Of a stretch of DNA of 12,800 nucleotides, positions 1-12,800 are shown piece by piece; the stretch's first letter is position 1, and each line of letters starts with the position of its first letter. The notes under the pieces are model-generated. The model saw only the letters and a program-made list of their open reading frames with translations. It made no database searches and was not told the DNA's origin. Origin of the DNA: a virus; UHGV virus genome UHGV-0088363; one strand, given 5' to 3'. A program made the position numbers and the translations under genes.

Positions 1-178
1 TGAGTTTTGGGTTTAGCGTGACAAGTTTGCGAGGGTGATCGGAGTAATCAGTGAATAGCTCTCCGCCAACAATGACGTCATAACCATGATTTCTGGTTTT
101 CTGCCGTCCGTTATCAGTTCCCTCTGACCACGCCAGCATATCGAGGAACGCCTTACGTTGATTATTGATTTCCACCAT
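1..178 (-). CDS. R: Endolysin R (lambda R-type), N-terminal part; gene continues beyond the window start
   Basis: Reverse complement from 178 reads ATG GTG GAA ATC AAT AAT CAA CGT AAG GCG TTC CTC GAT ATG CTG GCG TGG = [17 protein letters not shown], the lambda R N-terminus as I recall it. Start overlaps the S stop as in lambda. Confidence 0.9.
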
Positions 179-485
179 CTTCTACTCCGGCTTTTTTAGC
201 AGCGAAGCGTTTGATAAGCGAACCAATCGAGTCAGTACCGATGTAGCCGATGAACACGCTCGTTATATAAGCGAGATTGCTACTTAGTCCGGCGAAGTCG
301 AGAAGGTCACGAATGAACCAGGCGATAATGGCGCACATCGTTGCGTCGATTACTGTTTTTGTAAACGCACCGCCATTATATCTGCCGCGAAGGTACGCCA
401 TTGCAAACGCAAGGATTGCCCCGATGCCTTGTTCCTTTGCCGCGAGAATGGCGGCTAACAGGTCATGTTTTTCTGGCATCTTCAT
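162..485 (-). CDS. S: Class I holin S (S107/S105 dual-start type)
   Basis: 107-aa ORF beginning [22 protein letters not shown], essentially the lambda S sequence as recalled, including the Met-Lys-Met dual start; hydrophobic segments; sits immediately upstream of R. Confidence 0.95.
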
Positions 486-530
486 GTCTTAGCCCCAATA
501 AGGGGATTTGCTCTATTTAATTAGGAATAA

Positions 531-569
531 GGGCAAAACGGCAGGAGGTTGTTAGCGCAACCTCTTGCC
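531..569 (-). terminator. GC-rich hairpin followed by a U-tract in the S leader (lambda-homologous element)
   Basis: On the minus strand: GGCAAGAGG-loop-CCTCCTGCC (9-bp stem, one mismatch) followed by GTTTTGCCC. The surrounding 486..660 resembles the lambda S-upstream leader from memory. Confidence 0.35.
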
Positions 570-656
570 ACCCACTTTCACGAAGATCATGTGTAGAAGG
601 CCGCAGCGTAACTATCACTGATGAATTCAGGATAGTCAGTGGCTACGGCTCAGTTA

Positions 657-732
657 TGGTGCTGGTTAACGGACTTGAACCGCTACCCATTCGCTTACAA
701 GGCGACTGCTCTACCATTGGAGCTAAACCAGC
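657..732 (-). tRNA. tRNA gene, anticodon read as UGU (Thr-like), encoded CCA end
   Basis: Minus-strand sequence folds by hand as a 76-nt cloverleaf: acceptor GCTGGTT/AACCAGC (7 bp), D-stem GCTC/GAGC with GG in the loop, anticodon loop CTTGTAA, T-stem with T-loop TTCAAGT, discriminator A, CCA. One G-A pair at the top of the anticodon stem. Confidence 0.6.
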
Positions 733-737
733 ATGTT

Positions 738-812
738 TGGCGGGACAGCGTGGACTCGAACCACGATAAGAAGGTTAACAGCCTTCCGTAATGACCTTTA
801 TACGACTGACCC
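738..812 (-). tRNA. tRNA-like gene, anticodon read as GUU (Asn-like), possibly degenerate
   Basis: 75-nt cloverleaf 5 nt upstream of the previous tRNA: perfect anticodon stem GAAGG/CCTTC with loop CTGTTAA, perfect T-stem CGTGG/CCACG with T-loop TTCGAGT, then GCCA. Acceptor and D stems each have one mismatch. Confidence 0.45.
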
Positions 813-866
813 AAATAAAAAAAGCCACCGTTGCAACTTAAGAGTCACTAACGGCAGCTTACATCT

Positions 867-1379
867 TTAAACGGTATGATATTTCATTCTGGCTGCCTCA
901 AAAGCCGCAGCGGCAAGTTCGGCAGTGTCATGGTATCCAAGGTTAATACACTTTCCAGACGCATTAATTCTTGCTCTCCATTTCCCGTACTTAGCATCCC
1001 AAGACACGCCACGGTATCCAGATTTATTATTCTTCTGAATTTTCCTGTTTTGCATATTTTCGGAATGAGTGACAAGACGAAGATTTGATATCCGGTTATC
1101 TGTTCTTACCCTGTTGATGTGATCAATAAAACCATCTGGCATGGTGCCATAAACAATCAACCATGCCAGTCTGTGAGCAGGGTATGCTTTACCATTAATC
1201 ATAATCATTAAATACCCATCAGAATTTATTGATGAGCATTTCTTGAAAGCAAAACGAGAGTTCCATGTCAAAGTGGTCCTCTCTCTCCCCTGCCTCCACC
1301 TCCAGTGAAAGTCGCCTGATGATGGATTGTAATCAACAACAGAAAGCACCATTTCTGGCGTTAATTTTATTTCTTTCAT
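867..1379 (-). CDS. HNH homing endonuclease with C-terminal AP2-type DNA-binding domain (copy 1)
   Basis: 170-aa ORF with HNH motif DHINRVRTDNRISNLRLVTHSENMQN followed by SGYRGVSWDAKYGKWRARI...LGYHDTAELAAAAFEAA (AP2-like). RBS AAGGTAAAG upstream of the ATG. AT-rich relative to flanks. Confidence 0.8.
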   Translation of the reverse strand: MKEIKLTPEMVLSVVDYNPSSGDFHWRWRQGRERTTLTWNSRFAFKKCSSINSDGYLMIMINGKAYPAHRLAWLIVYGTMPDGFIDHINRVRTDNRISNLRLVTHSENMQNRKIQKNNKSGYRGVSWDAKYGKWRARINASGKCINLGYHDTAELAAAAFEAARMKYHTV

Positions 1380-1500
1380 CGCTTTACCTTAGGGATAGAG
1401 CCTGTTCGCGTAGATATGACAGCCAAGAGCGGAGCGATGTTTCCACCACCATATCTCAGGCCCATATCACTAAGACTCTTGTTTTGATTGCACGCGAATG

Positions 1501-1525
1501 CAAAAAAGCCCACAGGAGGTGGGCT
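1501..1525 (-). terminator. Rho-independent terminator downstream of pR' (tR'-type)
   Basis: Minus-strand RNA AGCCCAC-CUCCU-GUGGGCU (perfect 7-bp stem, 5-nt loop) followed by UUUUUUG, about 55 nt downstream of the predicted late promoter. Confidence 0.6.
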
Positions 1526-1557
1526 TGTGATGGTTGCTGAATGCAAAAGCAGCAGCA

Positions 1558-1596
1558 TATGTGAATATTATGGCTAAATGGATAATTGCATGTCAA
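1558..1596 (-). promoter_or_regulatory. Late promoter pR' (Q-dependent late operon promoter)
   Basis: Minus strand has a perfect -35 TTGACA (1591..1596), an 18-nt spacer and -10 CATAAT (1567..1572), abutting the Q stop codon. Confidence 0.55.
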
Positions 1597-2092
1597 GGCC
1601 TTTAACAGCAACATGCTTAACTTTCTCAACACGTTTACGCATTTTGAAAGCATTTTGCATTGGCTGGTACAAAACAAATAACGACGCTTTCAGGATGTCG
1701 TCAATTTCGTTTCTACAGGTTACCAGTGAAGGTTTTCTCCATCCCTCGCCACCACGTCCACACATCTTGCGTGGCTTTGCAGTCGCGTGATAGTAGGATG
1801 CAATTGCTCGCTTAGATGAACCATGAGCATAGTAGCTGAGGAGGATGCCAAAGGCTTTCTTGTCAATGTACATGACGGAATCGACGACCTGAGAAATCAA
1901 CATTCCATCATCATCATTACACATTGGCCTTGTCATAACTCTTCCCGGCTCTACGCTCTCCATGAACTTCGCTATTACGCTGCTCATGCGCTTTTCCAGA
2001 CGACCTGAATAAACCCATGCGCCCCACAGTTCAAGCCAGCCATTCAGCCACTCATGCTGTTCTTTGGTGAGGTTTAGTTCTCTTATGCCCAT
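1574..2092 (-). CDS. Q: Late antiterminator Q, non-lambda type (QuuD/phage 21-like family)
   Basis: 172-aa ORF with the motif pattern I recall for the short Q family (WGAW ... CNDDD ... YY.HG); RBS AAGGGAGAAGG; position immediately upstream of pR'. Not similar to lambda Q. Confidence 0.7.
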   Translation of the reverse strand: MGIRELNLTKEQHEWLNGWLELWGAWVYSGRLEKRMSSVIAKFMESVEPGRVMTRPMCNDDDGMLISQVVDSVMYIDKKAFGILLSYYAHGSSKRAIASYYHATAKPRKMCGRGGEGWRKPSLVTCRNEIDDILKASLFVLYQPMQNAFKMRKRVEKVKHVAVKGLDMQLSI

Positions 2093-2135
2093 GCGCCTTC
2101 TCCCTTGTTATCTGGAATGATTTTTACTGAGAACG

Positions 2136-2741
2136 TCATGCAGCCTCACTTCTGCTGTTTCGCAGTTTTTTAAGTTTCTGTTGATACTCCGCCTTGATGG
2201 TCCTGCACTCTTCGACAGTCCAGCGATGGCGGTTATGGTTTGATTCGATTTCGTCTACTGCTTCCTGCCCGATGCGGTTAATCAGTTCGACGCGATACGG
2301 AACGAGATTTCCGCTTTTGTGCTGGTTGCACACCACGCATTGCTTGTGAATATTGCGTTCATCAAATCGGAGTTGAGGCGCCGCAGCAGTTGTCCGGTAA
2401 TGCCCGGCATCCCACTGAGCAGACGTGAGCGTTCCGCACGAGATACATGGTAAGTCGCGGTCTCTTTCTCTGATGAAGGCGTTTACGGCTTGTTGGGCTT
2501 GTTTAATCCAGTAACTGCGGGGCTTTAAGGCGAGTTTTCGAATCTTAAGTTTATCTTTCTGTTTCTGCTCCTCTCGTCGTCGTTTCTTCTCTGCTGCTTT
2601 TTCCGCTTTTTTGCGCTGTTTGCTTCGTAGTTTGAGTGCTAATTGAGTTCCGTGTTCCGGGCAGCACCACCACTGATTTGAGAATGCCGGGTGAAACCAT
2701 TCCTTGCATATTTTGCATTTCCTTCGCGCTGATTTAGCCAT
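2136..2741 (-). CDS. ninG: NinG / Rap recombination-promoting structure-specific endonuclease
   Basis: 201-aa ORF, near-collinear with lambda NinG as recalled ([52 protein letters not shown]...). Confidence 0.9.
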
Positions 2742-2794
2742 AATCTTCTTCCTCGTGCATTGAGCTATTCTGATCGCTCATCAGTTCTGCGCAG

Positions 2795-3301
2795 TTATGG
2801 TCTACCATGGTTTTCATGAAAACCCAGTTCTTTTTCTGCCCTCTTCCTTTCTGCAATAGCGTCAATGATGCTAGCAAATATTCCAAGATATTTGGTGCGC
2901 CCATCTACGCATATATTCGCAATCCACTTACATCTCTCTTTATTGAAATATACTCCAGTCACTCCTGACGAATTGGTTATTTTTCTCTTTTGGTTCTGTG
3001 CATTCTGTTGGTGTGTAACCAATCGAAGATTAGATAGCCTATTATCTGACCTTACTCCATTTATATGATCAATTTTATACCCTAATGGAATCTCACCATT
3101 ATTTATCATCCATATAACGTGGTGAGCATAAGTAATTACACCATCGATAGTTAACATCCTATAACCATCACTCCTAATGTAACCAGCAACACTGCCAACC
3201 TTAACATTATTAGAAGGAGACACTTTCCATCTAAGTACACCTAAAACATCATCATATGATAATTTATTTCTTAATTCGTCTATGTTGCTTATATTTCTCA
3301 T
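2795..3301 (-). CDS. HNH homing endonuclease with AP2-type domain (copy 2)
   Basis: 168-aa ORF with IDHINGVRSDNRLSNLRLVTHQQNAQN followed by SSGVTGVYFNKERCKWIANI (AP2-like). AT-rich. Its start overlaps the 3' end of ninF. Confidence 0.8.
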   Translation of the reverse strand: MRNISNIDELRNKLSYDDVLGVLRWKVSPSNNVKVGSVAGYIRSDGYRMLTIDGVITYAHHVIWMINNGEIPLGYKIDHINGVRSDNRLSNLRLVTHQQNAQNQKRKITNSSGVTGVYFNKERCKWIANICVDGRTKYLGIFASIIDAIAERKRAEKELGFHENHGRP

Positions 3302-3449
3302 TATGTTCCACCATATTTAAGCATTCATATATACAACGCTCACACACGTGAACTTCCAGCACATGCAGCTTCTGACCGCAATTAGCGCACGTTAAAGCCC
3401 GCTCGACGCTTTCTTTCTGGTATTGAAGGGATTGGGATGGGCTAAGCAT
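3264..3449 (-). CDS. ninF: NinF-like protein with altered C-terminus
   Basis: N-terminal 37 residues [37 protein letters not shown] match lambda NinF as recalled; the C-terminal approx 24 residues overlap the HNH copy 2 start and differ. Confidence 0.7.
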   Translation of the reverse strand: MLSPSQSLQYQKESVERALTCANCGQKLHVLEVHVCERCIYECLNMVEHNEKYKQHRRIKK

Positions 3450-3814
3450 TATTGGATTCTCTGCATCATGAGAAAGACAATCATGGCGGCGCGGAGGGGA
3501 TTTTCATGTATAGCTCGCTTAGATTTACAGTAGGCCACACCGCGTGCACCCCACTCGTCTTCATCGAGATTGATAATGCTAATCCTGTATTTTTCAATAA
3601 TCGGCCATGCGTCTGCTGGGTTTGCGCATGGGTTAAAGGATCCGCGCTCAACTTCTACTTCAACTGCGTCTCCGTTTACAATGTCTCCCTCAAATGAGAT
3701 AAACACCATCGCGCCATTCTCACCTTCTTTGTAATCCGGTGATCCGTTATGAATGGCTTCGAATACCGCCACGTTAATTTCAAAATCACTTAACTGTGAA
3801 TAATCCATTGTCAT
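3449..3814 (-). CDS. Conserved nin-region protein of unknown function
   Basis: ORF starting at the ATG that overlaps the ninE stop (ATGA); its stop overlaps the ninF start (TAATG). Acidic protein beginning [21 protein letters not shown]. The six-frame track extends it to a GTG at 3850. Confidence 0.55.
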
Positions 3815-3987
3815 TTCCTCGCACGATGTCTTAGCCACCGGATATCCCACAGGTGAGCCGTGTAGTTGAAGGTTTTTACGTCAGATTCTTTTGGGATTGG
3901 CTTGCGTTTATTTCTGGAGCGTTTCGTTGGAAGGTATTTGCAGTTTTCGCAGATTATGTCGGTGATACTTCGTCGCTGTCGTCTCAT
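3811..3987 (-). CDS. ninE: NinE
   Basis: 58-aa product [52 protein letters not shown] matches lambda NinE as recalled; ATG overlaps the methyltransferase stop (ATGA). Confidence 0.8.
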
Positions 3988-4514
3988 GCCGCCCTCCTGA
4001 CGCCCTGCCCGATCGCCATCAATGCCGCTTTGGATACGGTAGTAAACATCCGTCGAGGACTGATGAACGGTCGCCAAATTAGCAGCATGGAGCCTTTGCT
4101 GTTTCCCTTCTTCTCCAGCCCTGTCGATGGTTCGATAAAATTAATCCGTCCATCAGTGATAATGCGAACTTCGTCGACACTCTCCAGAGCTTTGCTGAAC
4201 CATCCGACTGACATATCCTCTGGCACAAGCATAACTACCGTCTGTCGCTGTTGTATGCACTGCTCAGCGGCTTTTTCCACCCACGGCCTGATATTGCTGT
4301 ACGGTGGGTTATTCCAGATTGCACCGTGGCTTACCCACTCAGAATTGAGCGCGTCGTCGGCCTCAGTTAGCCAGTGAGCACACAGAGCATTTTTGTCGCT
4401 CGCTGCCGAATCCAGCCAGAATCCAAACTCAATATCCAGTGCATCAAAAAGCCAAAGCGGCGTTTGCCAGCAGTCTCTAACTTCTTTTGGTGTTTCTGAT
4501 TTATGCTTAATCAT
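3984..4514 (-). CDS. Phage Dam-type DNA N6-adenine methyltransferase
   Basis: 176-aa ORF with the N6-adenine MTase catalytic motif NPPY ([20 protein letters not shown]) and an N-terminal [26 protein letters not shown] region typical of small phage Dam-family enzymes. Confidence 0.8.
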
Positions 4515-5038
4515 TCAACCCTCGCATATTGCCCGTGATATTTGTTGATAGCCTCACTGGCAACCAAACCAGCAAGATCAAGATCTTCATAGAACCCAAA
4601 ATGCAACCGGCCAAAATCTGTGCGCACTTGAACGGCCCATTTATTTTTTTGCTTGTTCCATAAAACATTTTTTATTCCAGAACGGCTATTGCACTTAGTT
4701 TTCTGATTTCGGCTGTTTGCTATCCGGCTTGCCTCCCTAAGATTTTTTGGGGAATTGTCCAGCCTGTTTCCGTTAATATGGTCAATATTTTTCAATGGCA
4801 TTCTTTTGTTGTGCAGCGCAAAAACAACTACGTGAACAAACATCTGAATGCCTGCAAAACACACCTGTCTATACCCAGATCCATTTATCGATGTTTTAAT
4901 TTCATCTCCGGCCCGGTGGCTGTGGTTGGGGTGTTTTAGCGAGTCCTTTTTGTATCTGACTGTATCTCCGTCTAAATACAGATAATCCTCAATAAGCCGA
5001 TACCTATCTGACGCTGGCGTATTTGATTTGATAGTCAT
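4511..5038 (-). CDS. HNH homing endonuclease with AP2-type domain (copy 3)
   Basis: 175-aa ORF from the ATG overlapping the ninB stop (ATGA); HNH motif IDHINGNRLDNSPKNLREASRIANSRN followed by SGIKNVLWNKQKNKWAVQV...FGFYEDLDLAGLVASEAINKYHG; its stop overlaps the methyltransferase start. Confidence 0.75.
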   Translation of the reverse strand: MTIKSNTPASDRYRLIEDYLYLDGDTVRYKKDSLKHPNHSHRAGDEIKTSINGSGYRQVCFAGIQMFVHVVVFALHNKRMPLKNIDHINGNRLDNSPKNLREASRIANSRNQKTKCNSRSGIKNVLWNKQKNKWAVQVRTDFGRLHFGFYEDLDLAGLVASEAINKYHGQYARVE

Positions 5039-5475
5039 GCAGCCCGATCTCCCCATCTCGCTTTCCACTCCAGAGCCAGTCTCGCTTCGTCTGACCACTT
5101 AACGCCACGCTCTGTACCGAATGCCTGTATAAGCTCTAATAGCTCCGCAAATTCGCCTACACGCATCCTGCTGGTTGACTGGCCTATTACCACAAAGCCA
5201 TTCCCGGCAAGGTTAGGAACAACGTCCTGCTGCTTTAATGCTGCTGTAAAAACGCACTTCCAGCTTTCTGCATCCAGCCAGCGACCATGCCATTCAACCT
5301 GACGCGAAACGTCACCAAGGCAAGCCCAAAGCTTCCGATTTTGGTCTAAGCTGCGGTTGCGCTCCTGAATGGTTACTACGATTGGTTTTGTTGGGTCTGG
5401 AAGGATTTGCTGGATGGCTTGAATGGCGTTCTGCTGATGGATGGGGCTTCTTAGTTCAAACGTTAGTTTCCTCAT
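5035..5475 (-). CDS. ninB: NinB (Orf-family recombination mediator)
   Basis: 146-aa ORF, nearly collinear with lambda NinB as recalled (PDPTKPIVVTIQERNRSLDQNRKLWACLGDVSRQVEWHGRWLDAESWKCVFTAALK...). Confidence 0.9.
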   Translation of the reverse strand: MRKLTFELRSPIHQQNAIQAIQQILPDPTKPIVVTIQERNRSLDQNRKLWACLGDVSRQVEWHGRWLDAESWKCVFTAALKQQDVVPNLAGNGFVVIGQSTSRMRVGEFAELLELIQAFGTERGVKWSDEARLALEWKARWGDRAA

Positions 5476-5710
5476 TGCTCACCTTCTGCACACATGGATT
5501 AATTAACGCCAAAATAGCTTCTGGTTTCTCAATAACATCGAACCGCTCACCACTTGCCATTCTTACAATCGTAATCCCGGCCTCAAATAGGGTTTCGATG
5601 TTGTCAGAGTTAACGTACAAGGGCTCATATGCACTTCTGGTGCTTTCTATCACGCCTGTGCTTGGTGGCTGATAGATGCTGCATTGCATGGTTAATTTTA
5701 TAAATGGCAT
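5456..5710 (-). CDS. Hypothetical phage protein (84 aa)
   Basis: ORF in the operon frame chain, start 2 nt after the upstream stop; no family recognised from sequence. Confidence 0.45.
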   Translation of the reverse strand: MPFIKLTMQCSIYQPPSTGVIESTRSAYEPLYVNSDNIETLFEAGITIVRMASGERFDVIEKPEAILALINPCVQKVSNEETNV

Positions 5711-5714
5711 ATAC

Positions 5715-6035
5715 TCACTCCTTCACTTTGACTCCAGCAGCGCGGATGTTTTCCTCATAAGCATCCATTGCATCACCGAAGCCATTGGAATAATCAACAG
5801 TAAACCCTTTGGCTAATGCTTCTCTGCTGTTGATAAACTTTGGCGCGGTTATTTCAATAGCTGATCGCGATGCCTGCCACGTTTGCCAGTGGCCTTGAAC
5901 ATCGTCCATCACGTATTGACCACCAATATTACCGCTGCCAATTTCATGGTGATTTTCAGGGTAACGGATAAGGTCTGAAGATTCGCCTCCACGTCGCAAC
6001 CAACTTTCTTCAAACTGCCTTCTTGATTCGTCCAT
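5715..6035 (-). CDS. Hypothetical phage protein (106 aa)
   Basis: ORF in the same-strand operon; no family recognised. Confidence 0.45.
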   Translation of the reverse strand: MDESRRQFEESWLRRGGESSDLIRYPENHHEIGSGNIGGQYVMDDVQGHWQTWQASRSAIEITAPKFINSREALAKGFTVDYSNGFGDAMDAYEENIRAAGVKVKE

Positions 6036-6052
6036 CGGTACTTACCCTCAGT

Positions 6053-6259
6053 TCAACTCACAAAACGCCACGCCATTTTTGCTACAGCGACAGGCATAAC
6101 ACCGATAATCACCCAGACAAATGCAGCGCCAAACAACGTATACCATGGGTCTTTACCGTCATTCACAAGACGAATGTAGCTATGCAGAACAATAAAAAAC
6201 GTCAGAAGAATCCATCCAACGCCAACGCATTTGAGTGAGACGAGCATAAACTCAGCCAC
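6053..6259 (-). CDS. Small putative membrane protein (approx 64-68 aa, start uncertain)
   Basis: Two hydrophobic stretches (GWILLTFFIVLHSYI and AAFVWVIIGVMPVAVA); the track start is a GTG, an ATG lies 4 codons in. Confidence 0.4.
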   Translation of the reverse strand: MAEFMLVSLKCVGVGWILLTFFIVLHSYIRLVNDGKDPWYTLFGAAFVWVIIGVMPVAVAKMAWRFVS

Positions 6260-6273
6260 GATTTACTCTCCCC

Positions 6274-6306
6274 CAAATAAAAAGGCCTGCGATTACCAGC
6301 AGGCCT
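6274..6306 (-). terminator. Rho-independent terminator after the replication genes (tR2-like position)
   Basis: Minus strand: AGGCCUGC-UGGUAAUC-GCAGGCCU (perfect 8-bp stem) followed by UUUUAUUUG, directly downstream of the helicase stop. Confidence 0.5.
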
Positions 6307-6334
6307 GTTATTAGCTCAGTGATGTAGATGGTCA

Positions 6335-7771
6335 TCAGAATCCTCCTTTCTTCTTGGACTGCGGTTCCTCGCGTTCACGGCGGCGCATTTCAGCAGACTG
6401 TTGGTCTGTGTCATAAATAGCGCCATTTGCCTGAATGCAATACACCGTGCCGGTATTGCCATGACGATTGAGACGAAGGATTAGTTCGGTTTCACCAGGT
6501 GGAACACTGTCATCAAAAGCACCTTCACGATGGATCCCCACCCAATAATCGCAATCCTGTTCAATCTGCCCTGTATCGCGCGAGTCACTTGGTAATGGGC
6601 GTTTATTGGTTCGGCTTTCCAATGCGCGGTTAAGCTGTGTCAGAAGCACAACAACGCAATCAAGCTCTTTGGCAAGGTTCTTCAATCCTTTGGTGATCAT
6701 GCCGTAAGCAAGGTCGTTGCGATCGGCCTTCTCAGCAGTCATTAGTGTCAGGTAATCGACCAGAATCATGCCAACACATCCTTTTTCTCGCTTGATTCGA
6801 CGGCTTTCGCTGACGATTTGAGCCAGAGATAATCCCGGCGTGTCGTCGATGTAAAGCAGGTCGATTTCACTCAAGCGATTGGCTGTTTCGATCGCCCTGT
6901 TGAAGTCACCATCGTAATCACCCTGATAGCCGTCATCAGCGTCATTTGTCGCCGGAAGGTAAAAAATATTCGGGTTAACACCAGACTTCTGCCCTACCAG
7001 TTTTTCCAGTATCTGATCACCTGGCATTTCAAGGCTGAACATCAGAGCGGGCTTTTTCTCATGCACTGCGCAGTTGATTGCCATCTGGCTGTATAGCGTC
7101 GTTTTCCCCATCTTAGGGCGAGCGCCAATGACAAACAGAGAGCCTTTCACCAGACCTTTCGGTGACAGCATCCTGTCCAGCGATGGGATCCCTGTGCTCA
7201 TTCCTCGTTGTTCGCCTGACGGGTCAAATCGCTTCTCAAGGTCGCTAACCCAGTCTTCCATGACCTCACCAAATGAGCGAAGGCCGCGACGCGATCCGGT
7301 TTTTGCATGGTCTGTCAGTTGCGTGAAAATCGCCTGAATAGCTTCGTACTTCTGCGTTGCAGTCATTCCGTTGCGGGAATAGAGCAATTCCGTCGCTTCA
7401 GTTATGCGGTTGATGGCGTAGCGTTCCATTGCGGTTTCACGAACCTGCATTGCATAGGCAACGATGTTTGCGGCGCTTGGCGTGTTCTTTGCGATCTCAG
7501 CGATATAAGCAAAACCGCCAACAGACGACGTTAACGATTTACGCTCCAGTTCATCGAAAAGCGTCAGGCCATCTACTGGATTTTGCTCCCGGTGCATTCT
7601 GGTTATTTCTTCGAAAAGGATTTTGTGTGGTCGGCTGTAAAATGAATCAGGCTTCAGCATCGCCAGAACTTTCTGGACGCGCTCACTGCTGTCATCATCC
7701 AGAAGCAATCCACCAATCACCGCCTGCTCTGCCTCGATGCTATGGGGCGGCGCATAAAAATTATCGGTCAT
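6335..7771 (-). CDS. Replicative DNA helicase, DnaB family
   Basis: N-terminus [26 protein letters not shown] (DnaB N-domain signature), Walker A GARPKMGKTT, and a downstream ILVDYLTLM-type motif. Start set at the ATG with RBS GAGGGTG rather than the upstream GTG of the track. Confidence 0.85.
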   Translation of the reverse strand: MTDNFYAPPHSIEAEQAVIGGLLLDDDSSERVQKVLAMLKPDSFYSRPHKILFEEITRMHREQNPVDGLTLFDELERKSLTSSVGGFAYIAEIAKNTPSAANIVAYAMQVRETAMERYAINRITEATELLYSRNGMTATQKYEAIQAIFTQLTDHAKTGSRRGLRSFGEVMEDWVSDLEKRFDPSGEQRGMSTGIPSLDRMLSPKGLVKGSLFVIGARPKMGKTTLYSQMAINCAVHEKKPALMFSLEMPGDQILEKLVGQKSGVNPNIFYLPATNDADDGYQGDYDGDFNRAIETANRLSEIDLLYIDDTPGLSLAQIVSESRRIKREKGCVGMILVDYLTLMTAEKADRNDLAYGMITKGLKNLAKELDCVVVLLTQLNRALESRTNKRPLPSDSRDTGQIEQDCDYWVGIHREGAFDDSVPPGETELILRLNRHGNTGTVYCIQANGAIYDTDQQSAEMRRREREEPQSKKKGGF

Positions 7772-8660
7772 CGTGTTCACCCTCACGAACTTTCAGGTAG
7801 GTATTATCGTTAAGCAGGAAATCAAATCCCTTTTTGTGCCAGACGGTTCCGCGTTGATGGTTTGGGCGTTCTTCGAACATCCATCGGCAATTTTCGCCTA
7901 CGTAGCTCAAATAATTTCTCCAGTCCTGCATCGTGAACCCATGCCCGTCAAGCTGGCGGGTTATCACTCCGGCTTTGCGCCAGAACGTTCGGATCTGGTT
8001 TTTACGCTTGTCATTCAGTGCGCGGATTCTTGGCGCTTCAGGAAGGATTTCGTGGTAAGCATCGACAACATCCTGACAGCTGACGGAAGGTTTTTTCTTG
8101 TCAGACTTTTTGTCTGCTGTGGCACTCTCTAATACGTCAGTATTAGAGATAATATTATTATATTCTTTATCTGTGGTAATTTGCTGGTAATCTGCTGGCA
8201 TAGTATTGCTTACAGGCATTGGTATTGCTGGCTTTGAGGTGGTAATTTGCTGGTAATCTGCTGGTACAGAATTTGACTGATAATCGTCATATTTCTCTAC
8301 CGAGAAAACTGAAAATTTACCGTGTGAAACCCAGTCAATCATGCCGAGTTTTTTGAACTTTCTAAGCAGGTACTGAACGCGATCTGGTTTGAGTCCTGTT
8401 TCAAACGCCAGAGAGTTTCTACCGCCAAGTAGCTTCCCTCTGCCTACCAGAATTTCTCCTGCGTCAGTCATTACATACTCAGGCGTATGCTTTGCTTTGA
8501 GGATTAAGTGAACCCACAGATGCGCTGCTTCTGCGTCCTTGTAAAACGGCACATCCATAATTTTACGGTGCAGCAAGGCATACCCCTTACCGCTGCTTTG
8601 ATGCGGTTGTTGTAGCCTTCTGGCCTCTCTGGCTTCGGCTAGATTAGATATGTTACTCAT
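7761..8660 (-). CDS. Replication initiation protein (O-like, iteron-containing), non-lambda allele
   Basis: 299-aa ORF directly upstream of and overlapping the helicase gene; contains the origin-like iterons, which encode a repeated PADYQQITT segment; RBS AAGGAGAAAGG. Not the lambda O sequence. Confidence 0.7.
8129..8264. repeat. Putative replication origin: iterons plus adjacent AT-rich tract inside the O-like gene
   Basis: Exact 26-bp direct repeat GTGGTAATTTGCTGGTAATCTGCTGG at 8173..8198 and 8239..8264, each made of two approx 12-bp GGTAAT(T/C)TGCTG units, with degenerate units between; AT-rich stretch at 8129..8170. Confidence 0.55.
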
Positions 8661-8799
8661 GACCTTTCTCCTTCTGCATCAGCTTCACTTTTTCCAACTC
8701 AGCCCGGAATCGACCAGGCTGCTTGAAGCTGGACAGGAAGCGATCACGTAGTATGTGTTTGTGAATTTTGTCCTGGTAAGGACTGAGTTGTTTTGTCAT
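8653..8799 (-). CDS. Small ORF (48 aa) between cII and the O-like gene; possible recombination-junction ORF
   Basis: Not in the six-frame track (under 60 aa). ATG preceded by ACAGGAGTCATT, which matches the lambda O ribosome-binding region as recalled; stop lies 5 nt past the O-like start. Confidence 0.35.
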
Positions 8800-8833
8800 A
8801 ATGACTCCTGTGGATTGATCCAGTCTTTCTACA

Positions 8834-9112
8834 TCAGGCCTCGAAGAATTCGCCGTTCTTCGGGGCTTTTTCTTTTGTCAGCATTCTGGCTACTTGCTTA
8901 GCCAGTTCCGCCAACTCCTCGTCTTCAACACCCCATTCCAGCACAGCCAGAAGCATGGCCATCTTTGGGATAAAGCTGTCTTTCCATCGCGAAATTTGCG
9001 ATTCATTAATCCCTAACGCGTCGGCAACCTTTCGCTGACCACGTACAGCAATTCGATTCAGGATGTTGCTTGTAATTGCATTCGCTTTCTTGCGAGTACT
9101 TGTAAGTTGCAT
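8834..9112 (-). CDS. cII: CII-family transcriptional activator (divergent allele)
   Basis: 92-aa product from the ATG with RBS AAGGAAAT; core SQISRWK...[15 protein letters not shown] matches the lambda CII core, N- and C-termini differ. The track's upstream extension lacks an RBS. Confidence 0.8.
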
Positions 9113-9191
9113 ATGTAAGTATTTCCTTAGATAACAATTGATTGAATGTATGCAAATAAATGCATACACCATAGGTGTGGTTTAATTTGAT

Positions 9192-9223
9192 GCCCTTTTT
9201 CAGGGCTGGAATGTGTAAGAGCG
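9192..9223 (-). promoter_or_regulatory. nutR (boxA CGCTCTTA and boxB GCCCTGAAAAAGGGC)
   Basis: Minus strand reads CGCTCTTACACATTCCAGCCCTGAAAAAGGGC, matching lambda nutR as recalled. Confidence 0.85.
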
Positions 9224-9230
9224 GGGTTAT

Positions 9231-10245
<1,015 letters not shown>

Positions 10246-10331
10246 GTCCGCAGCAAGAGACTTTATACGCATCTAGATGTAGGAAATAAAAAAGAAGATC
10301 CCTACAATAAAAATAAGGAAATCATTAAGAT

Positions 10332-11237
10332 ATGTCGATTAACAGCAATAGCGAATCCCTGCATCAAATGCAGCTTTTCCCTGTAGTAGAGGTTGTTTCT
10401 GATGATATTCCTATGGGCGTTCTCAATGATGGAACTCCTTACCTAACTCTCTACGGTCTCGCAAAGTTATGCGGCATTGATGACACGCCACTGAGGGTGT
10501 TCACATCAAACTGGAACACAGAGAAAAACAAACCCAGAGGTCAAAAAGTAGCTGCGTATTTAGCTGAGAAAGGGTTTCATAACGTCGAAAAGCTATACAC
10601 TCGCGTTTTAAATAGCTCAAACGTGGAAACTCATGCTTATCCTGACTATGTTTGCATGGCTATCCTCCGTTACTACGCTCTAGATGCCACCAATTTTGAT
10701 AGGTCAGTCGCAATAGGTAATTTTGTTCGCTTGGCTGAGTACACGCTTAAGCGAATGATTTATGAAAAGTCAAATTACAACCCAAATGCTTCAATAGATA
10801 TCTCATTCGAGAACTATAGAGCAAGGATTAAGCTAAACGATCAGATACCGACAACTCATTTTGCAGTATTCAGAGAGATAGCTGACATTGCCATGAACCT
10901 GATCGGAGGAGGATTCCCAATGGATGACACCACATCTTTGGATGGAAGTGTTGGAATTCACTGGGGAAAGTATTGGACAGCTAATGGGCTATCTGAGAAA
11001 TTCGGGGAAAGGGTGCAGTACCCACATTTATTCCCCGAAAATTACAGGCAGTCAGCTGCAAATAAGCATATAACAGCTTGGATTTATCCTATTGAGGCAC
11101 TTGGCGTGTTCAGAAAATGGCTACACGATAATTACGCAATGGAAAAACTGCCAAATTACCTTGGGAACAAAAAGATTAGTAACGCCTCCGAGCTATTAGA
11201 GTCGATAAAAAAACCAGCACTCCCAAATAAGCATTGA
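10332..11237 (+). CDS. Unknown 301-aa protein in the position occupied by rexA-rexB in lambda; candidate lysogen-expressed exclusion/defense gene
   Basis: Uninterrupted ORF with RBS AAGGAAAT, co-directional with cI, followed by a terminator; AT-rich versus flanks; no similarity to RexA/RexB and no kinase or NTPase motifs visible by eye. Confidence 0.7.
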   Translation: MSINSNSESLHQMQLFPVVEVVSDDIPMGVLNDGTPYLTLYGLAKLCGIDDTPLRVFTSNWNTEKNKPRGQKVAAYLAEKGFHNVEKLYTRVLNSSNVETHAYPDYVCMAILRYYALDATNFDRSVAIGNFVRLAEYTLKRMIYEKSNYNPNASIDISFENYRARIKLNDQIPTTHFAVFREIADIAMNLIGGGFPMDDTTSLDGSVGIHWGKYWTANGLSEKFGERVQYPHLFPENYRQSAANKHITAWIYPIEALGVFRKWLHDNYAMEKLPNYLGNKKISNASELLESIKKPALPNKH

Positions 11238-11247
11238 TCTCCACCAC

Positions 11248-11276
11248 AACCCGGCATCTGCGCCGGGTTTTCTTTG
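11248..11276 (+). terminator. Rho-independent terminator ending the cI-moron transcription unit
   Basis: CCCGGC-ATCTGC-GCCGGG (6 to 8-bp stem) followed by TTTTCTTTG, 11 nt after the ORF stop. Confidence 0.6.
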
Positions 11277-11425
11277 CCTAACGCCCCCAAAAAACGCATA
11301 ACCAATTGTATTTATTTCAAAATTAATAGATACAACTCACTAAACATCGCAATTCAGATCTCTCGATCACCTTCCCAATCCACACAACCCTGCAAAAAAT
11401 AAATCTATATAAAAAACATACAGAT

Positions 11426-11495
11426 AACCATCTGCGGTGATAAATTATCTCTGGCGGTGTTGACATAAATACCACTGGCGGTGATACTAAGCACA
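11426..11495 (+). promoter_or_regulatory. Left operator region OL3-OL2-OL1 with promoter pL
   Basis: AACCATCTGCGGTGATA (11426..11442), TATCTCTGGCGGTGTTG (11446..11462), TACCACTGGCGGTGATA (11470..11486); -35 TTGACA at 11460..11465 and -10 GATACT at 11483..11488, as in lambda. Confidence 0.9.
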
Positions 11496-11526
11496 TCAGC
11501 AGGACGCACTGACCACCATGAAGGTG

Positions 11527-11558
11527 ATGATCTTAAAAATTAAGCCCTGAAGAAGGGT
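11527..11558 (+). promoter_or_regulatory. nutL (boxA-like TGATCTTAA and boxB GCCCTGAAGAAGGGT)
   Basis: Lambda-like nutL spacing and boxB loop; boxA and the last boxB base differ from the lambda sequence as I recall it. Confidence 0.7.
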
Positions 11559-11756
11559 AGCATTCAAAGCAGAAGGCTTTGGGATTGGATGAATGAGCAG
11601 GCTGATGCTCGACCAATGTATAAACAGCGCTCATGGCAAGCAGTAACCAATCTGCGCCTCAAGACAGCGTCACTGGTAGTGCGGGCGCTCTAACCAGTAA
11701 GCCGGGGTTCAGCGCCGGCCATCCAATCACCAAAGCTAACTGACAGGAGAATCCAG

Positions 11757-12083
11757 ATGGATGCACAAACACGCCGCCGCGAACGTCGCGCAGAGAAACA
11801 GGCTCAATGGAAAGCAGCAAATCCCCTGTTAGTTGGGGTAAGCGCAAAACCAGTTAACCGCCCTATTCTCTCGCTGAATCGCAAACCGAAATCACGAGTA
11901 GAAAGCGCACTGAATCCGATAGACCTTACGGTGCTGGCTGAATACCACGAACAGATTGAAAGCAACCTGCAGCGTATTGAGCGCAAGAATCAGCGCACAT
12001 GGTACAGCAAGCCACGCAGTGAAATGGGTGTGACTTGTGTTGGTCGCCAGAAAATGAAATTAGGCAGCAAACCACTTATTTGA
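11757..12083 (+). CDS. N: N antitermination protein
   Basis: 108-aa ORF MDAQTRRRERRAEKQAQWKAANPLLVGVSAKPVNRPILSLNRKPKSRVESALNPIDLTVLAEYH..., arginine-rich motif at the N-terminus; RBS ACAGGAGAATCCAG; the C-terminal approx 20 residues differ from lambda N as recalled. Confidence 0.95.
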   Translation: MDAQTRRRERRAEKQAQWKAANPLLVGVSAKPVNRPILSLNRKPKSRVESALNPIDLTVLAEYHEQIESNLQRIERKNQRTWYSKPRSEMGVTCVGRQKMKLGSKPLI

Positions 12084-12094
12084 GAGGAATTAAT

Positions 12095-12718
12095 ATGTCA
12101 TCAATCCGCTTAACTACGAGAATGAAAGAGGAAATCGCTCGTAACGCTTTAATTAAGTCTGGGTTTTTCACTGAACTTAAAGAAGTAACAAAGTTAAAGA
12201 ACCAGCTTGCACTTGACGCCAGAGTTATTGCGTTTGGCGGTAAAAAGAAAACTGAGGAAGTGGATCAGTTATCATCCAAGTTGGTAGCTATAAGTGAAGA
12301 ACTTGAAAAGATGGGATGTTCATTTTACTCATACGATGTTCGTTCTACTTCAATTTATCTGACTGTATCTGGCAGAAGGGTTGGATGGCATTCATATGGG
12401 AAAGACGGCAACGGCGAAGATATATTGCTCCCTACTCCGACCAAAGATAAATGCATGTTTAGCGCAGAACACGAAATAACAAAAAGGTTTGATGAAATCT
12501 GCGCATTGCAACAAAAACTTGAAGCCAAGAAAAAGGATATCGAATCAAATGTATGGGCTGCTTTGAACTCAGTCACAACAGTTAAGCGACTTATTGAAGT
12601 TTGGCCTGAAAGCAAAGAATTGCTACCAGAAGAAGCAGATAAAGCAAGTACAGCACTTCCTGCTTTACGGGTAGAAGATTTGAATAAGATGATTGGACTT
12701 CCTTCCGAGGCCGCATAG
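12095..12718 (+). CDS. Unknown 207-aa protein immediately downstream of N; candidate moron
   Basis: ATG 11 nt after the N stop with GAGGA inside the N 3' end; AT-rich; charged, coiled-coil-like sequence; followed by a hairpin and T-rich tract. The track's upstream extension (12035) overlaps N and is not used. Confidence 0.65.
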   Translation: MSSIRLTTRMKEEIARNALIKSGFFTELKEVTKLKNQLALDARVIAFGGKKKTEEVDQLSSKLVAISEELEKMGCSFYSYDVRSTSIYLTVSGRRVGWHSYGKDGNGEDILLPTPTKDKCMFSAEHEITKRFDEICALQQKLEAKKKDIESNVWAALNSVTTVKRLIEVWPESKELLPEEADKASTALPALRVEDLNKMIGLPSEAA

Positions 12719-12735
12719 TCGGCCTTTACTTTTGG
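12708..12735 (+). terminator. Possible rho-independent terminator after the 207-aa ORF
   Basis: AGGCCG-CATAGT-CGGCCT (6-bp stem, stop codon in the loop) followed by TTACTTTTGG; the T-run is interrupted. Confidence 0.4.
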
Positions 12736-12800
12736 CATAAACAACAGAATAAACACTGCACTGTGTATTCATTCCAACGAGTGAATACACGGAGCAATGT

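Follow-up and report, generated by a model that had tools for sequence, protein, structure and literature searches.

The combination of a phage 21-type Q switch with lambda-type lysis genes belongs to the textbook modular mosaicism of lambdoid phages. The closest described systems are those of phage 21 itself (OL657228; 6P18/6P19/6JNX), with the same Q family and the same layout of −35, tandem Q-binding site (QBE), −10, transcription start and −10-like pause as the locus considered here, and of Sf6 (AF547987) and phage L (PMC8022706), which have the same Q subtype (98–99% identical). For Sf6 such a hybrid has been on record for two decades, its annotation listing a 21-like Q, pR′, tR′, tRNA-Asn, tRNA-Thr and a lambda-like S, and the Q/QBE subtype has been described for phage L, where the proposed QBE is the identical AATTATCC/ATTTAGCC (PMC8022706). 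In Q21 the QBE is read by an HT[loop]H whose loop comprises approximately residues 105–121 (Yin, Kaelber and Ebright, 10.1101/651190).

The window, that is, the whole 12,800-nucleotide stretch of viral DNA analysed, carries all features of its late-control segment on the minus strand. No single record accounts for all 12.8 kb, the best coverage being 65% among E. coli genomes and 49% among phages, so the whole window is a new mosaic combination; the late-control segment is not new. It is an ordinary, already described lambdoid late-gene switch, mildly unusual only in a selfish-looking HNH endonuclease gene that, along with an extra terminator, is inserted directly downstream of the promoter.

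The Q gene and the promoter overlapping its end

The upstream features of the segment, in the order of transcription, are:

2092..1574, minus strand: Q antiterminator gene, 172 aa, phage 21 family (type 3), Sf6/phage L subtype
1596–1591, minus strand: −35 of pR′, TTGACA, from a promoter scan and in alignment with the annotated phage 21 pR′ −35
1587–1572, minus strand: QBE, two tandem 8-bp subsites AATTATCC and ATTTAGCC, from alignment with the phage 21 QBE ATTGAGCA/AATGAGCA
1572–1567, minus strand: −10 of pR′, CATAAT, with an 18-bp spacer, in alignment with the annotated phage 21 −10
A1560, minus strand: predicted +1 of the late transcript, from positional homology with the mapped phage 21 +1
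1559–1553, minus strand: predicted sigma-dependent pause element (SDPE) TATGCTG, in alignment with the phage 21 SDPE TAAGCTG

The initial annotation assigned Q to a short, QuuD-like family. QuuD of DLP12 does have the Pfam family PF06530 (E 1e-25 in Q) in common with it and is alignable in its N-terminal region, but BLASTP gives just 28% identity over 85 aa (E 6e-11), the lengths are 172 and 127 aa, and the C-terminal, DNA-reading part of QuuD is dissimilar; it is not the closest relative. Against the Q21 structures (PDB 6jnx/6p18) phmmer returns E 6e-92 over residues 1–162. The protein is a phage 21-type Q, and QuuD is a distant relative of it. Its identity to Q21 is 99% over aa 1–102 and 61.7% over aa 103–162, and its identity to Sf6 gp59 is 98–99% along the whole of Q; the QBE-reading HT[loop]H (10.1101/651190) falls in the part that has diverged.

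The promoter that had been placed after Q is present as TTGACA-18-CATAAT, but it overlaps the gene instead of following it: the −35 and QBE share sequence with the last ~8–10 codons of Q, and the gene's TAG stop (1576–1574) falls within the QBE. It is the sole site in 1..2800 with at least 11 of 12 consensus matches, for which the chance expectation over the same interval is 0.056 (1000 mononucleotide shuffles). Between its −35 and −10 there is a tandem direct 8-bp repeat, the predicted Q-binding site, and each of the −35, QBE, −10, +1 and SDPE lines up with its annotated phage 21 counterpart without a shift in position. Neither the QBE nor the SDPE has the sequence tested in phage 21, and the spacer is one base pair longer (18 bp against 17); the QBE is identical to that of phage L and differs by 1 nt from that of Sf6. 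The TATGCT of the pause element corresponds to predicted +2 to +7. From the phage 21 work we infer, by analogy, the start site, the pause, the loading of Q and readthrough.

Two terminators and an endonuclease cassette

Downstream of the predicted start the following are found:

862..1566, minus strand: block co-travelling with the HNH gene in Sf6/L-type backgrounds, made up of ATTCACA, TATGCTGC, t1, a 120-nt leader, the ORF and 5 nt
1526–1506 (hairpin) with a T-run to 1500, minus strand: terminator t1, an 8-bp GC-rich stem, 5-nt loop and T6
1379..867, minus strand: HNH-AP2 endonuclease gene, 170 aa, with HNH_3 and AP2 domains
861–855, minus strand: second pause-element copy, TAAGCTG, before the phage 21-type tR′
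860–822 (hairpin) with T7 at 821–815, minus strand: phage 21-type tR′, after the endonuclease gene

There are thus two strong intrinsic terminators between pR′ and the late genes, t1 and tR′. The first spans +35 to ~+60 from the predicted start and folds, within a 66-nt leader, with −21.5 kcal/mol (z −4.2); for the second the values are −20.2 kcal/mol and z −3.95, and for neither was any of 200 shuffles as stable. The sequence 861–815 is 99% identical to phage 21 3740–3788, which carries the annotated SDPE and terminator. A terminator about 55 nt downstream of the promoter had been recognized from the start, and its hairpin (1526–1506) stands; the idea that it is the Q module's own tR′ does not, as it is linked to the HNH gene, which accompanies t1 in 38 of 39 viral contigs. 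By these comparisons t1 is evidently not the tR′ of phage 21 and belongs to an inserted endonuclease cassette. The anatomy is therefore to be corrected to two tandem terminators, with the proximal one coming from the cassette; the second (860–815) was missing from the initial annotation, as were the extent of phage 21 homology, to 595, and a 71-bp deletion at 531/532 considered below. In the HK629 record (JQ182735) the label ‘pR′’ stands downstream of t1, at odds with the phage 21 homology, and appears to be a mislabelling.

In the endonuclease the HNH_3 match is full length (1–46 of 46, E 2e-18) and AP2 is matched with E 1.6e-8. The AP2 domain matches PDB 7wq5 with E 2e-6, and a PDB sequence search with the whole protein returned the plant AP2 domain only and no solved HNH relative. 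The protein is 100% identical in HK629; its remaining phage matches are below 60% identity, and many of these relatives are annotated as homing endonucleases. The gene is probably that of a free-standing homing endonuclease, for which we infer homing activity. On the minus strand from 1500 to 1380 no promoter for it reaching 9/12 consensus was found, though a weak or non-sigma-70 one may exist, and in the papers searched no lambdoid phage was described as having an HNH gene in its late leader.

Measured against 21-type empty sites, the inserted sequence itself is ~862–1556, which puts it at ~+3/+4 of the late transcript, with TATGCTGC as its left border and TAAGCTGC as its right one; the ATTCACA at the left of the block is the 21-type start region. 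The block is missing from both phage 21 and Sf6. Its junctions are constant in 39 IMG/VR loci, bar a single-base difference in five, and the modules downstream vary. The cassette occurs behind the 21-type as well as the L-type QBE, and its presence behind two Q/QBE subtypes would be compatible with transfer. Near-complete copies are present in 39 of 5426 E. coli genomes. Cassette-free at the same site are at least 221 related late regions, all of which read TAAGCTG; in cassette-free sites ATTCACA and the L-type QBE never occur together and TATGCTG never occurs. Taken together the t1-HNH block is most likely a free-standing homing-endonuclease cassette whose expression would be late only.

Two other candidate features were set aside. 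One was the 8-bp flanking repeat TAWGCTGC as the trace of a transposon-like event, for which there are, by eye, no obvious terminal inverted repeats at the cassette ends and no transposase. The other was an ORF of 60 aa, 1558..1376, as a leader peptide: such a length has a chance of ~0.06 per frame, and its conservation is uninformative because the copies are all near-identical. The stop codon of this ORF overlaps the HNH start as ATGA.

The tRNA pair, a shared linker and the lambda joint

The remaining features run from the tRNA genes to the holin gene:

812–738, minus strand: tRNA-Asn (GTT), ARAGORN; RF00005 55.3 bits
732–657, minus strand: tRNA-Thr (TGT), ARAGORN; RF00005 61.5 bits
595..655, minus strand: linker common to lambda, phage 21, Sf6 and HK629, from alignment and blastn
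532..594, minus strand: lambda-type S leader with a conserved terminator-like hairpin, 569–540, followed by GTTTTGCC
531/532, minus strand: deletion junction with 2-nt microhomology; the missing 71 bp are present in lambda, Sf6, HK629 and E2348/69
505–493, minus strand: lambda-type sdi stem, from alignment with lambda
485..162, minus strand: holin S, PF05106 (E 2e-30), dual start ATGAAGATG

The initial order of an endonuclease gene and tRNAs, then a lambda-like S leader and S, is borne out by the ORF at 1379..867, the tRNAs and PF05106. The genes first termed tRNA-like are there, and they are more than that: ARAGORN and Rfam (55 and 61 bits, the RF00005 gathering score being 29) make them genuine tRNA genes, the same ones as in phage 21 and Sf6. 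Rfam at permissive thresholds returned no RNA family in 1..2800 beyond these two tRNAs. In lambda, and in the spacers of HK629 type and WCHEC type found where the pair would be, ARAGORN detected no tRNA; Rfam gave one sub-threshold tRNA-like/tmRNA match, in L149.

A recombination joint had been proposed near 660, at the 3′ end of a tRNA that was itself thought to be the crossover point. The boundary is real, since lambda homology starts at 655, 2 nt beyond the 3′ end of tRNA-Thr (blastn). The tRNA is nonetheless not the crossover site, because 655–595 is common to lambda and phage 21, and phage 21 homology runs on to 595 (blastn), the window being 21-like at 4 of 5 informative sites. This linker occurs behind at least four different upstream modules, and in other phages different late-control modules are joined to the same S leader at ~585. 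It is probably here that late-control and lysis modules exchange by homologous recombination. The real module boundaries can accordingly be placed at 655, 595 and ~585, in the shared linker, and the late-control/lysis join, in or at the edge of these 60 bp, is old and common and not a new tRNA event.

Beyond the linker the S-leader hairpin has a z of −2.98, and the phage 21 sequence at this point is unrelated; from 532 to 1 the window is 98.5% identical to lambda. The junction of the 71-bp deletion is found also in 11 IMG/VR contigs, with 0 matches among GTDB species representatives. Holin S has its Phage_holin_3_1 domain, a Met-Lys-Met dual start and the upstream sdi stem. Lambda shares both ATGAAGATG and the CCCC/GGGG stem, past which there is one G-to-C change; the sdi stem taken alone is not above shuffles in strength (z +0.67).

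A predicted switch with an insertion, and its relatives

Comparison with lambda and phage 21 agrees with the initial description of a mosaic in which what looks like a short-transcript late switch with a non-lambda Q is joined to a lambda-type S leader, S and R. The segment is very probably the late-gene switch of a mosaic lambdoid phage, composed of known modules and one insertion. Q would be produced at the end of the early-right operon, its N-terminal RNA-polymerase-binding part being the same as in Q21 and its C-terminal DNA-reading part presumably having diverged together with the QBE. The promoter pR′ would be constitutive, with the sigma-70 holoenzyme pausing at the −10-like TATGCT, and two Q protomers on the tandem 8-bp QBE would load onto the paused polymerase and make it terminator-resistant. 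Without Q, transcription would stop at t1 with an RNA of ~60 nt; with Q, the polymerase would read through t1, the HNH-AP2 gene, tR′, the two tRNAs and the lambda-type leader hairpin to reach S, R and the remainder of the late operon. The t1-HNH insertion would have entered a 21-type late transcript at ~+3/+4 in such a way that its left end retains a working pause element and the original copy of that element, with tR′, follows on the right. The homologies, the positions of the junctions and the distribution across genomes are direct observations.

That the segment is instead a novel recombinant, with a non-lambda Q, pR′ and tR′ newly joined to lambda lysis genes via homology in a tRNA or tRNA-like sequence, is highly improbable. 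The start of lambda homology so close to tRNA-Thr is in keeping with it, and the edges of HK629 homology, 812 and 655, fall exactly on the two outer ends of the tRNA pair, so that the pair behaves as a sharp-edged module. However, phage 21 itself has the 60-bp lambda-like linker after its tRNA, and the tRNA offers no homology for recombination because lambda is without a tRNA here. Nor is the hybrid new: besides its annotation in Sf6 it is common in viral contigs (at least 73 have it, lambda-type S following 73 of 120 sampled L/Sf6-type late regions), and 26 E. coli genomes are collinear over the whole segment, bar the 71-bp indel, E. coli O127:H6 E2348/69 with its prophage being one of them. 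This is essentially the collinearity that the initial annotation had itself named as its refutation. The polarity of the insertion could also be reversed, t1 being the native tR′ and the mobile unit consisting of the 120-nt leader, HNH gene, pause-element copy and 21-type hairpin, set in the t1 T-run. A rare lineage, WCHEC115106 and L164, reads pR′-TATGCT-t1-T7 and then an HK629-type spacer, with neither the HNH gene nor the 21-type hairpin; t1 is thus the sole terminator there and might in principle be a native allele of tR′. Moreover, TATGCTG is never found without t1. Yet t1 without HNH is confined to this single lineage (one viral contig out of 39 and no more than ~2 out of 41 E. coli genomes), the T7 and downstream sequence of these t1-only loci match HK629 post-tR′ sequence, as expected for a T-run/T-run deletion, and the 21-type SDPE and tR′ are the native, experimentally mapped leader of phage 21, with hundreds of empty sites. 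Reversed polarity is consequently unlikely.

What of the endonuclease gene itself? Its late-operon position, with the co-expression with packaging and lysis genes to be expected from it, and an intact ORF, whose conservation reaches at least 99% in 36 of the 41 E. coli genomes, would suit a domesticated phage function (terminase-associated like HK97 gp74, or a host-DNA nuclease) or a moron. It lies between Q and S, however, and not beside a terminase gene; AP2 is typical of HNH-AP2 homing endonucleases, the annotation carried by phage relatives; and it is dispensable, at least 221 related late regions being without it and 39 with it. Unlike a classic moron it has a terminator upstream and no promoter of its own that was found. 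Domestication, or a moron, is thus very unlikely. A single ancient insertion spread by ordinary flanking recombination instead of homing would also fit, as all copies have the same two junctions. Bolder is the proposal that the t1-HNH-AP2 cassette is an active homing element specifically parasitising the phage 21-type antitermination switch, which we put forward as a tentative possibility, with the balance somewhat against it. It would be directed at the pause-element/tR′ DNA of relatives that have no cassette; by inserting at +3/+4 it would remake a working pause element, TATGCT, at its left junction, so that Q loading survives, its own terminator would keep the switch tight, and it would be expressed only after Q acts. 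If this were true, a selfish element would have been shaped to preserve a transcriptional regulatory element and not a coding sequence.

Returning to the switch as a mosaic of known modules with one insertion, its nearest relatives each share a different portion of it. Phage 21 has the same tR′ and tRNA pair (861..595 is 99.25% identical), but no 690-bp t1-HNH insert between pause element and tR′, and its lysis genes are those for the S21 pinholin and a SAR endolysin where the window's are lambda-type; identity over the last 60 aa of Q falls to 62%, the QBE is AATTATCC/ATTTAGCC in place of ATTGAGCA/AATGAGCA, and the window's −10 is CATAAT with the 18-bp spacer. In Sf6 the tRNA pair is the same, and lambda-type S107/S105, R and Rz are joined on in the same way; this phage is without the HNH cassette, its start region is TAGAAGG-TAAGCTG as against ATTCACA-TATGCTG, and its S leader is undeleted. 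HK629 and the E2348/69 prophage have the same Q, pR′, t1, HNH gene, tR′ and lambda-type S, and in both the S leader still has the 71 bp that are deleted in the window. The prophage has the tRNA pair too and is collinear with window 2107..1 except for the 71-bp indel, whereas HK629 has an unrelated 195-bp spacer where the window has the tRNAs.

The point of interest is the cassette: can an HNH homing cassette sit inside a pause/terminator leader without breaking the antitermination switch? Like the free-standing HNH genes of phages (T4 mobE-type, HNH-AP2 class), it has a small intergenic ORF with HNH_3 and AP2, is present or absent at one precise site between conserved neighbours and is accompanied in carriers by a variant insertion-site sequence. 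In contrast to them it lies not between coding genes but inside a promoter-proximal leader, between pause site and terminator.

The late switch and its Q protein

Every gene in this part of the window lies on the minus strand, and the late-control features of the initial annotation are all found on that strand, at the coordinates first given. They are confirmed since pR' is the sole site with at least 11 of 12 consensus matches in 1..2800 (0.056 expected) and the t1 and tR' hairpins each fold about 4 SD better than shuffles. The promoter had been placed after the Q gene; it is present near Q but overlaps the gene's final codons.

Features of the late-control region in the direction of transcription; the five entries from -35 to pause element are aligned with phage 21 record OL657228
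2741..2136, minus: NinG, first in gene order
2092..1574, minus: Q, 172 aa
1596-1591, minus: TTGACA, -35 of pR' (18-bp spacer to -10)
1587-1572, minus: tandem repeat AATTATCC/ATTTAGCC, putative Q-binding element (QBE)
1572-1567, minus: CATAAT, -10 of pR'
A1560, minus: predicted +1
1559-1553, minus: -10-like TATGCTG, putative pause element
1526-1506, T-run to 1500, minus: terminator t1, GC-rich hairpin
1379..867, minus: HNH_3 + AP2 ORF
860-815, minus: second long hairpin with T7 run
812-738, minus: tRNA-Asn(GTT)
732-657, minus: tRNA-Thr(TGT)
between tRNA-Thr and S, minus: leader, 171 nt long
485..162, minus: lambda-type holin S

The phage 21 record marks -35, QBE (ATTGAGCA/AATGAGCA), -10, +1, the sigma-dependent pause element (TAAGCTG), terminator and two tRNAs, and the window aligns with these marked elements position for position. 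Its tandem repeat is identical to the QBE proposed for phage L, AATTATCC/AtTTAgCC (PMC8022706). The solved structures of phage 21 Q, 6jnx and 6p18, are matched by the window Q at E 6e-92. Its identity to Q21 is 99% over residues 1-102; residues 103-162 are 62% identical to Q21 as against 98% to Sf6 gp59, and the protein is extended by 10 residues at its C-terminus. Q21 reads two 8-bp subsites via an HT[loop]H motif whose loop spans approximately residues 105-121 (Yin, Kaelber and Ebright, 10.1101/651190), and the diverged part of the window Q takes in this loop region. The same situation is described for phage L, whose type 3 Q shares 80% identity with Q21, the divergence setting in at residue 94 (PMC8022706). 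The label 'QuuD-like' holds to the extent that the Pfam family, PF06530, is common to both, but QuuD of DLP12 is only distantly related (28% identity over 85 aa), so that the label is loose and, judged by sequence, the switch is accurately called 'phage 21-type, Sf6/L subtype'.

In phage 21, pR' is constitutive; the -10-like element makes sigma-70 holoenzyme pause, and two Q protomers on the QBE then load, building a nozzle at the RNA exit channel that prevents hairpin formation (10.1101/651190; OL657228). From homology with that switch, start site, pause, Q loading and readthrough can be inferred for the window: without Q an RNA of ~60 nt would end at t1, and with Q polymerase would continue past t1, the HNH gene, tR', the tRNAs and the lambda-type leader hairpin (conserved, 569-540), on into S and R.

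Two further promoter assignments may be mentioned. The HK629 record (JQ182735) has a 'putative late promoter pR'' at TCTACG, downstream of t1 (2194-2199 of locus L001); homology with the mapped phage 21 promoter places the real pR' ~180 bp upstream (2012-2041 of the locus), overlapping the end of Q. Antisense to Q in the window, on the plus strand, a CII-type site TTGCGTGGCTTTGC (TTGC-N6-TTGC, 1767-1780) and a -10-like TAGGAT (1794-1799) stand where the phage 21 record has the promoter paQ and its CII binding site, so it seems that an anti-Q promoter has been conserved.

An endonuclease cassette in the late leader

Homology to phage 21 and Sf6 stops just past the pause element at ~1552 (alignment and blastn) and picks up again at 861, where TAAGCTGCCGTTAG... 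gives a second pause-element copy ahead of an authentic phage 21-type tR' that directly precedes tRNA-Asn; from 861 to 595 the window and phage 21 are 99.25% identical. The 690 bp between these breaks comprise t1, a leader of 120 nt and the HNH-AP2 gene, which ends with its stop codon 5 nt short of the right junction, and an imperfect 8-bp repeat marks the ends (left TATGCTGC, right TAAGCTGC). By these alignments t1, initially taken for the Q module's own tR', belongs to the insert. The HNH_3 + AP2 architecture is that of phage homing endonucleases, distant relatives are annotated likewise, and the promoter scan found no promoter in front of the gene, which points to a homing-endonuclease origin and to late, Q-dependent expression. 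A 60-codon ORF (1376-1558, minus strand) starts with an ATG at position +3 of the late transcript as predicted here, reads through t1 and ends in a TGA that shares bases with the start codon of the HNH gene (ATGA); it lacks a Shine-Dalgarno sequence, its copies are near-identical so that conservation is uninformative, and it is probably a chance open frame.

Of 5426 complete E. coli genomes, 39 carry the cassette in near-complete form, as do 39 IMG/VR contigs and HK629 (protein 100% identical). Both junctions are the same in 39/39 viral loci, save a single-base left-junction difference in five, while the downstream modules vary, with or without tRNAs and with or without lambda S; in three contigs (L042-L044) a true phage 21 QBE and -10 are joined to the same cassette. 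Cassette-free sites are far commoner (101 21-type contigs and at least 120 Sf6/L-type), and all have TAAGCTG. Since the 21-like start region of the window, ATTCACA, is absent from all the cassette-free L-type contigs (at least 120), the block from 1566, just past the -10, to 862 came into the window lineage as one, from a 21-type background.

The t1 hairpin accompanies the HNH gene in 38 of the 39 viral contigs. The exception, L164, is the same as E. coli WCHEC115106 (locus L149, 1760-1860), and the two carry a rare allele with pR', TATGCT and t1, lacking the HNH gene and the 21-type tR', in which T7 and the spacer found after tR' in HK629 come next after the t1 stem. A deletion between the T-runs of the two terminators is the probable origin of this allele; if so, t1 alone can serve as late terminator. 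In E. coli NCTC9112 (locus L047, 2001-2237) the cassette is reduced to its first 237 bp (t1, leader, HNH 5' end); beyond these lie unrelated DNA and a gene for a SASA-family carbohydrate esterase, which adds another recombination joint inside the cassette.

The joint to the lysis genes

Blastn matches of the window
Lambda: 655..531 (92.8%), 532..1 (98.5%)
Phage 21: up to 595
Sf6: 862..531, 532..2
HK629: 2107..812, 655..531, 532..1
E2348/69 prophage: 2107..531, 532..1

The recombination joint had been put near 660, with the tRNA suggested as crossover point; that suggestion is not supported. Lambda homology does begin (blastn) 2 nt past the 3' end of tRNA-Thr, but the next 60 bp, 655-595, align with both lambda and phage 21, the window siding with phage 21 at 4 of 5 informative sites, and the change to lambda-only sequence comes at 595/594. 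Lambda has no tRNA at this place, so a tRNA cannot have supplied the homology; the 655-595 linker can. The same linker stands behind at least four different upstream modules, and ten other viral contigs combine this S leader with a lambda/P22-type pR' (TTGACT...TAAATT...AACGAT), the join falling at ~585. Module boundaries thus cluster in 655-585, which, as read from these alignments, is ordinary lambdoid mosaicism.

In place of the tRNA pair, locus L149 has a spacer with a tRNA-like acceptor/T-arm remnant (GGTTCGATTCCGGCCGCCA; 1989-2047) that matches the tmRNA model at E 3.6e-4, under the gathering score; ARAGORN finds no tRNA in the spacer. The remnant ends near the shared-linker boundary, where the window's tRNA-Thr ends, a hint at repeated replacement or decay of tRNAs in this place.

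Relative to lambda, Sf6, HK629 and E2348/69, the S leader carries a 71-bp deletion at 531/532 (minus strand) with 2-nt microhomology, the deleted segment holding two interleaved inverted repeats, GAACAAATC/GATTTGTTC and TGATTACT/AGTAATC. A scan for this junction gave 11 IMG/VR contigs, of which ten have it downstream of a lambda/P22-type pR', and no hit among the GTDB representative genomes.

The combination among known phages

That the region was a new hybrid, not collinear with any one known phage, is not borne out. The Sf6 record already has a phage 21-like Q, a late promoter 'nearly identical to phage 21', qut site and tR', together with tRNA-Asn, tRNA-Thr and lambda-like S107/S105, R and Rz, and lambda-type S follows 73 of 120 sampled Sf6/L-type late regions. 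Segment 400..1700, HNH cassette included, is fully covered in 26 E. coli genomes. These include the E2348/69 prophage, whose sole difference is the 71-bp S-leader deletion in the window; viral locus L200 has the window arrangement, deletion included, without the cassette. The late-control segment is a real feature, correctly spotted, and a known, common module combination. Only the precise position of the HNH cassette, between pause element and terminator of a Q21-type switch, is modestly new; we found no discussion of it in the searchable literature. Over 1-12800 the best coverage is at most 65% in any complete E. coli genome and at most 49% in any phage record (best: Sf6, HK542), so that, by this comparison and unlike the late-control segment, the combination of immunity, replication and nin regions is the window's own mosaic.
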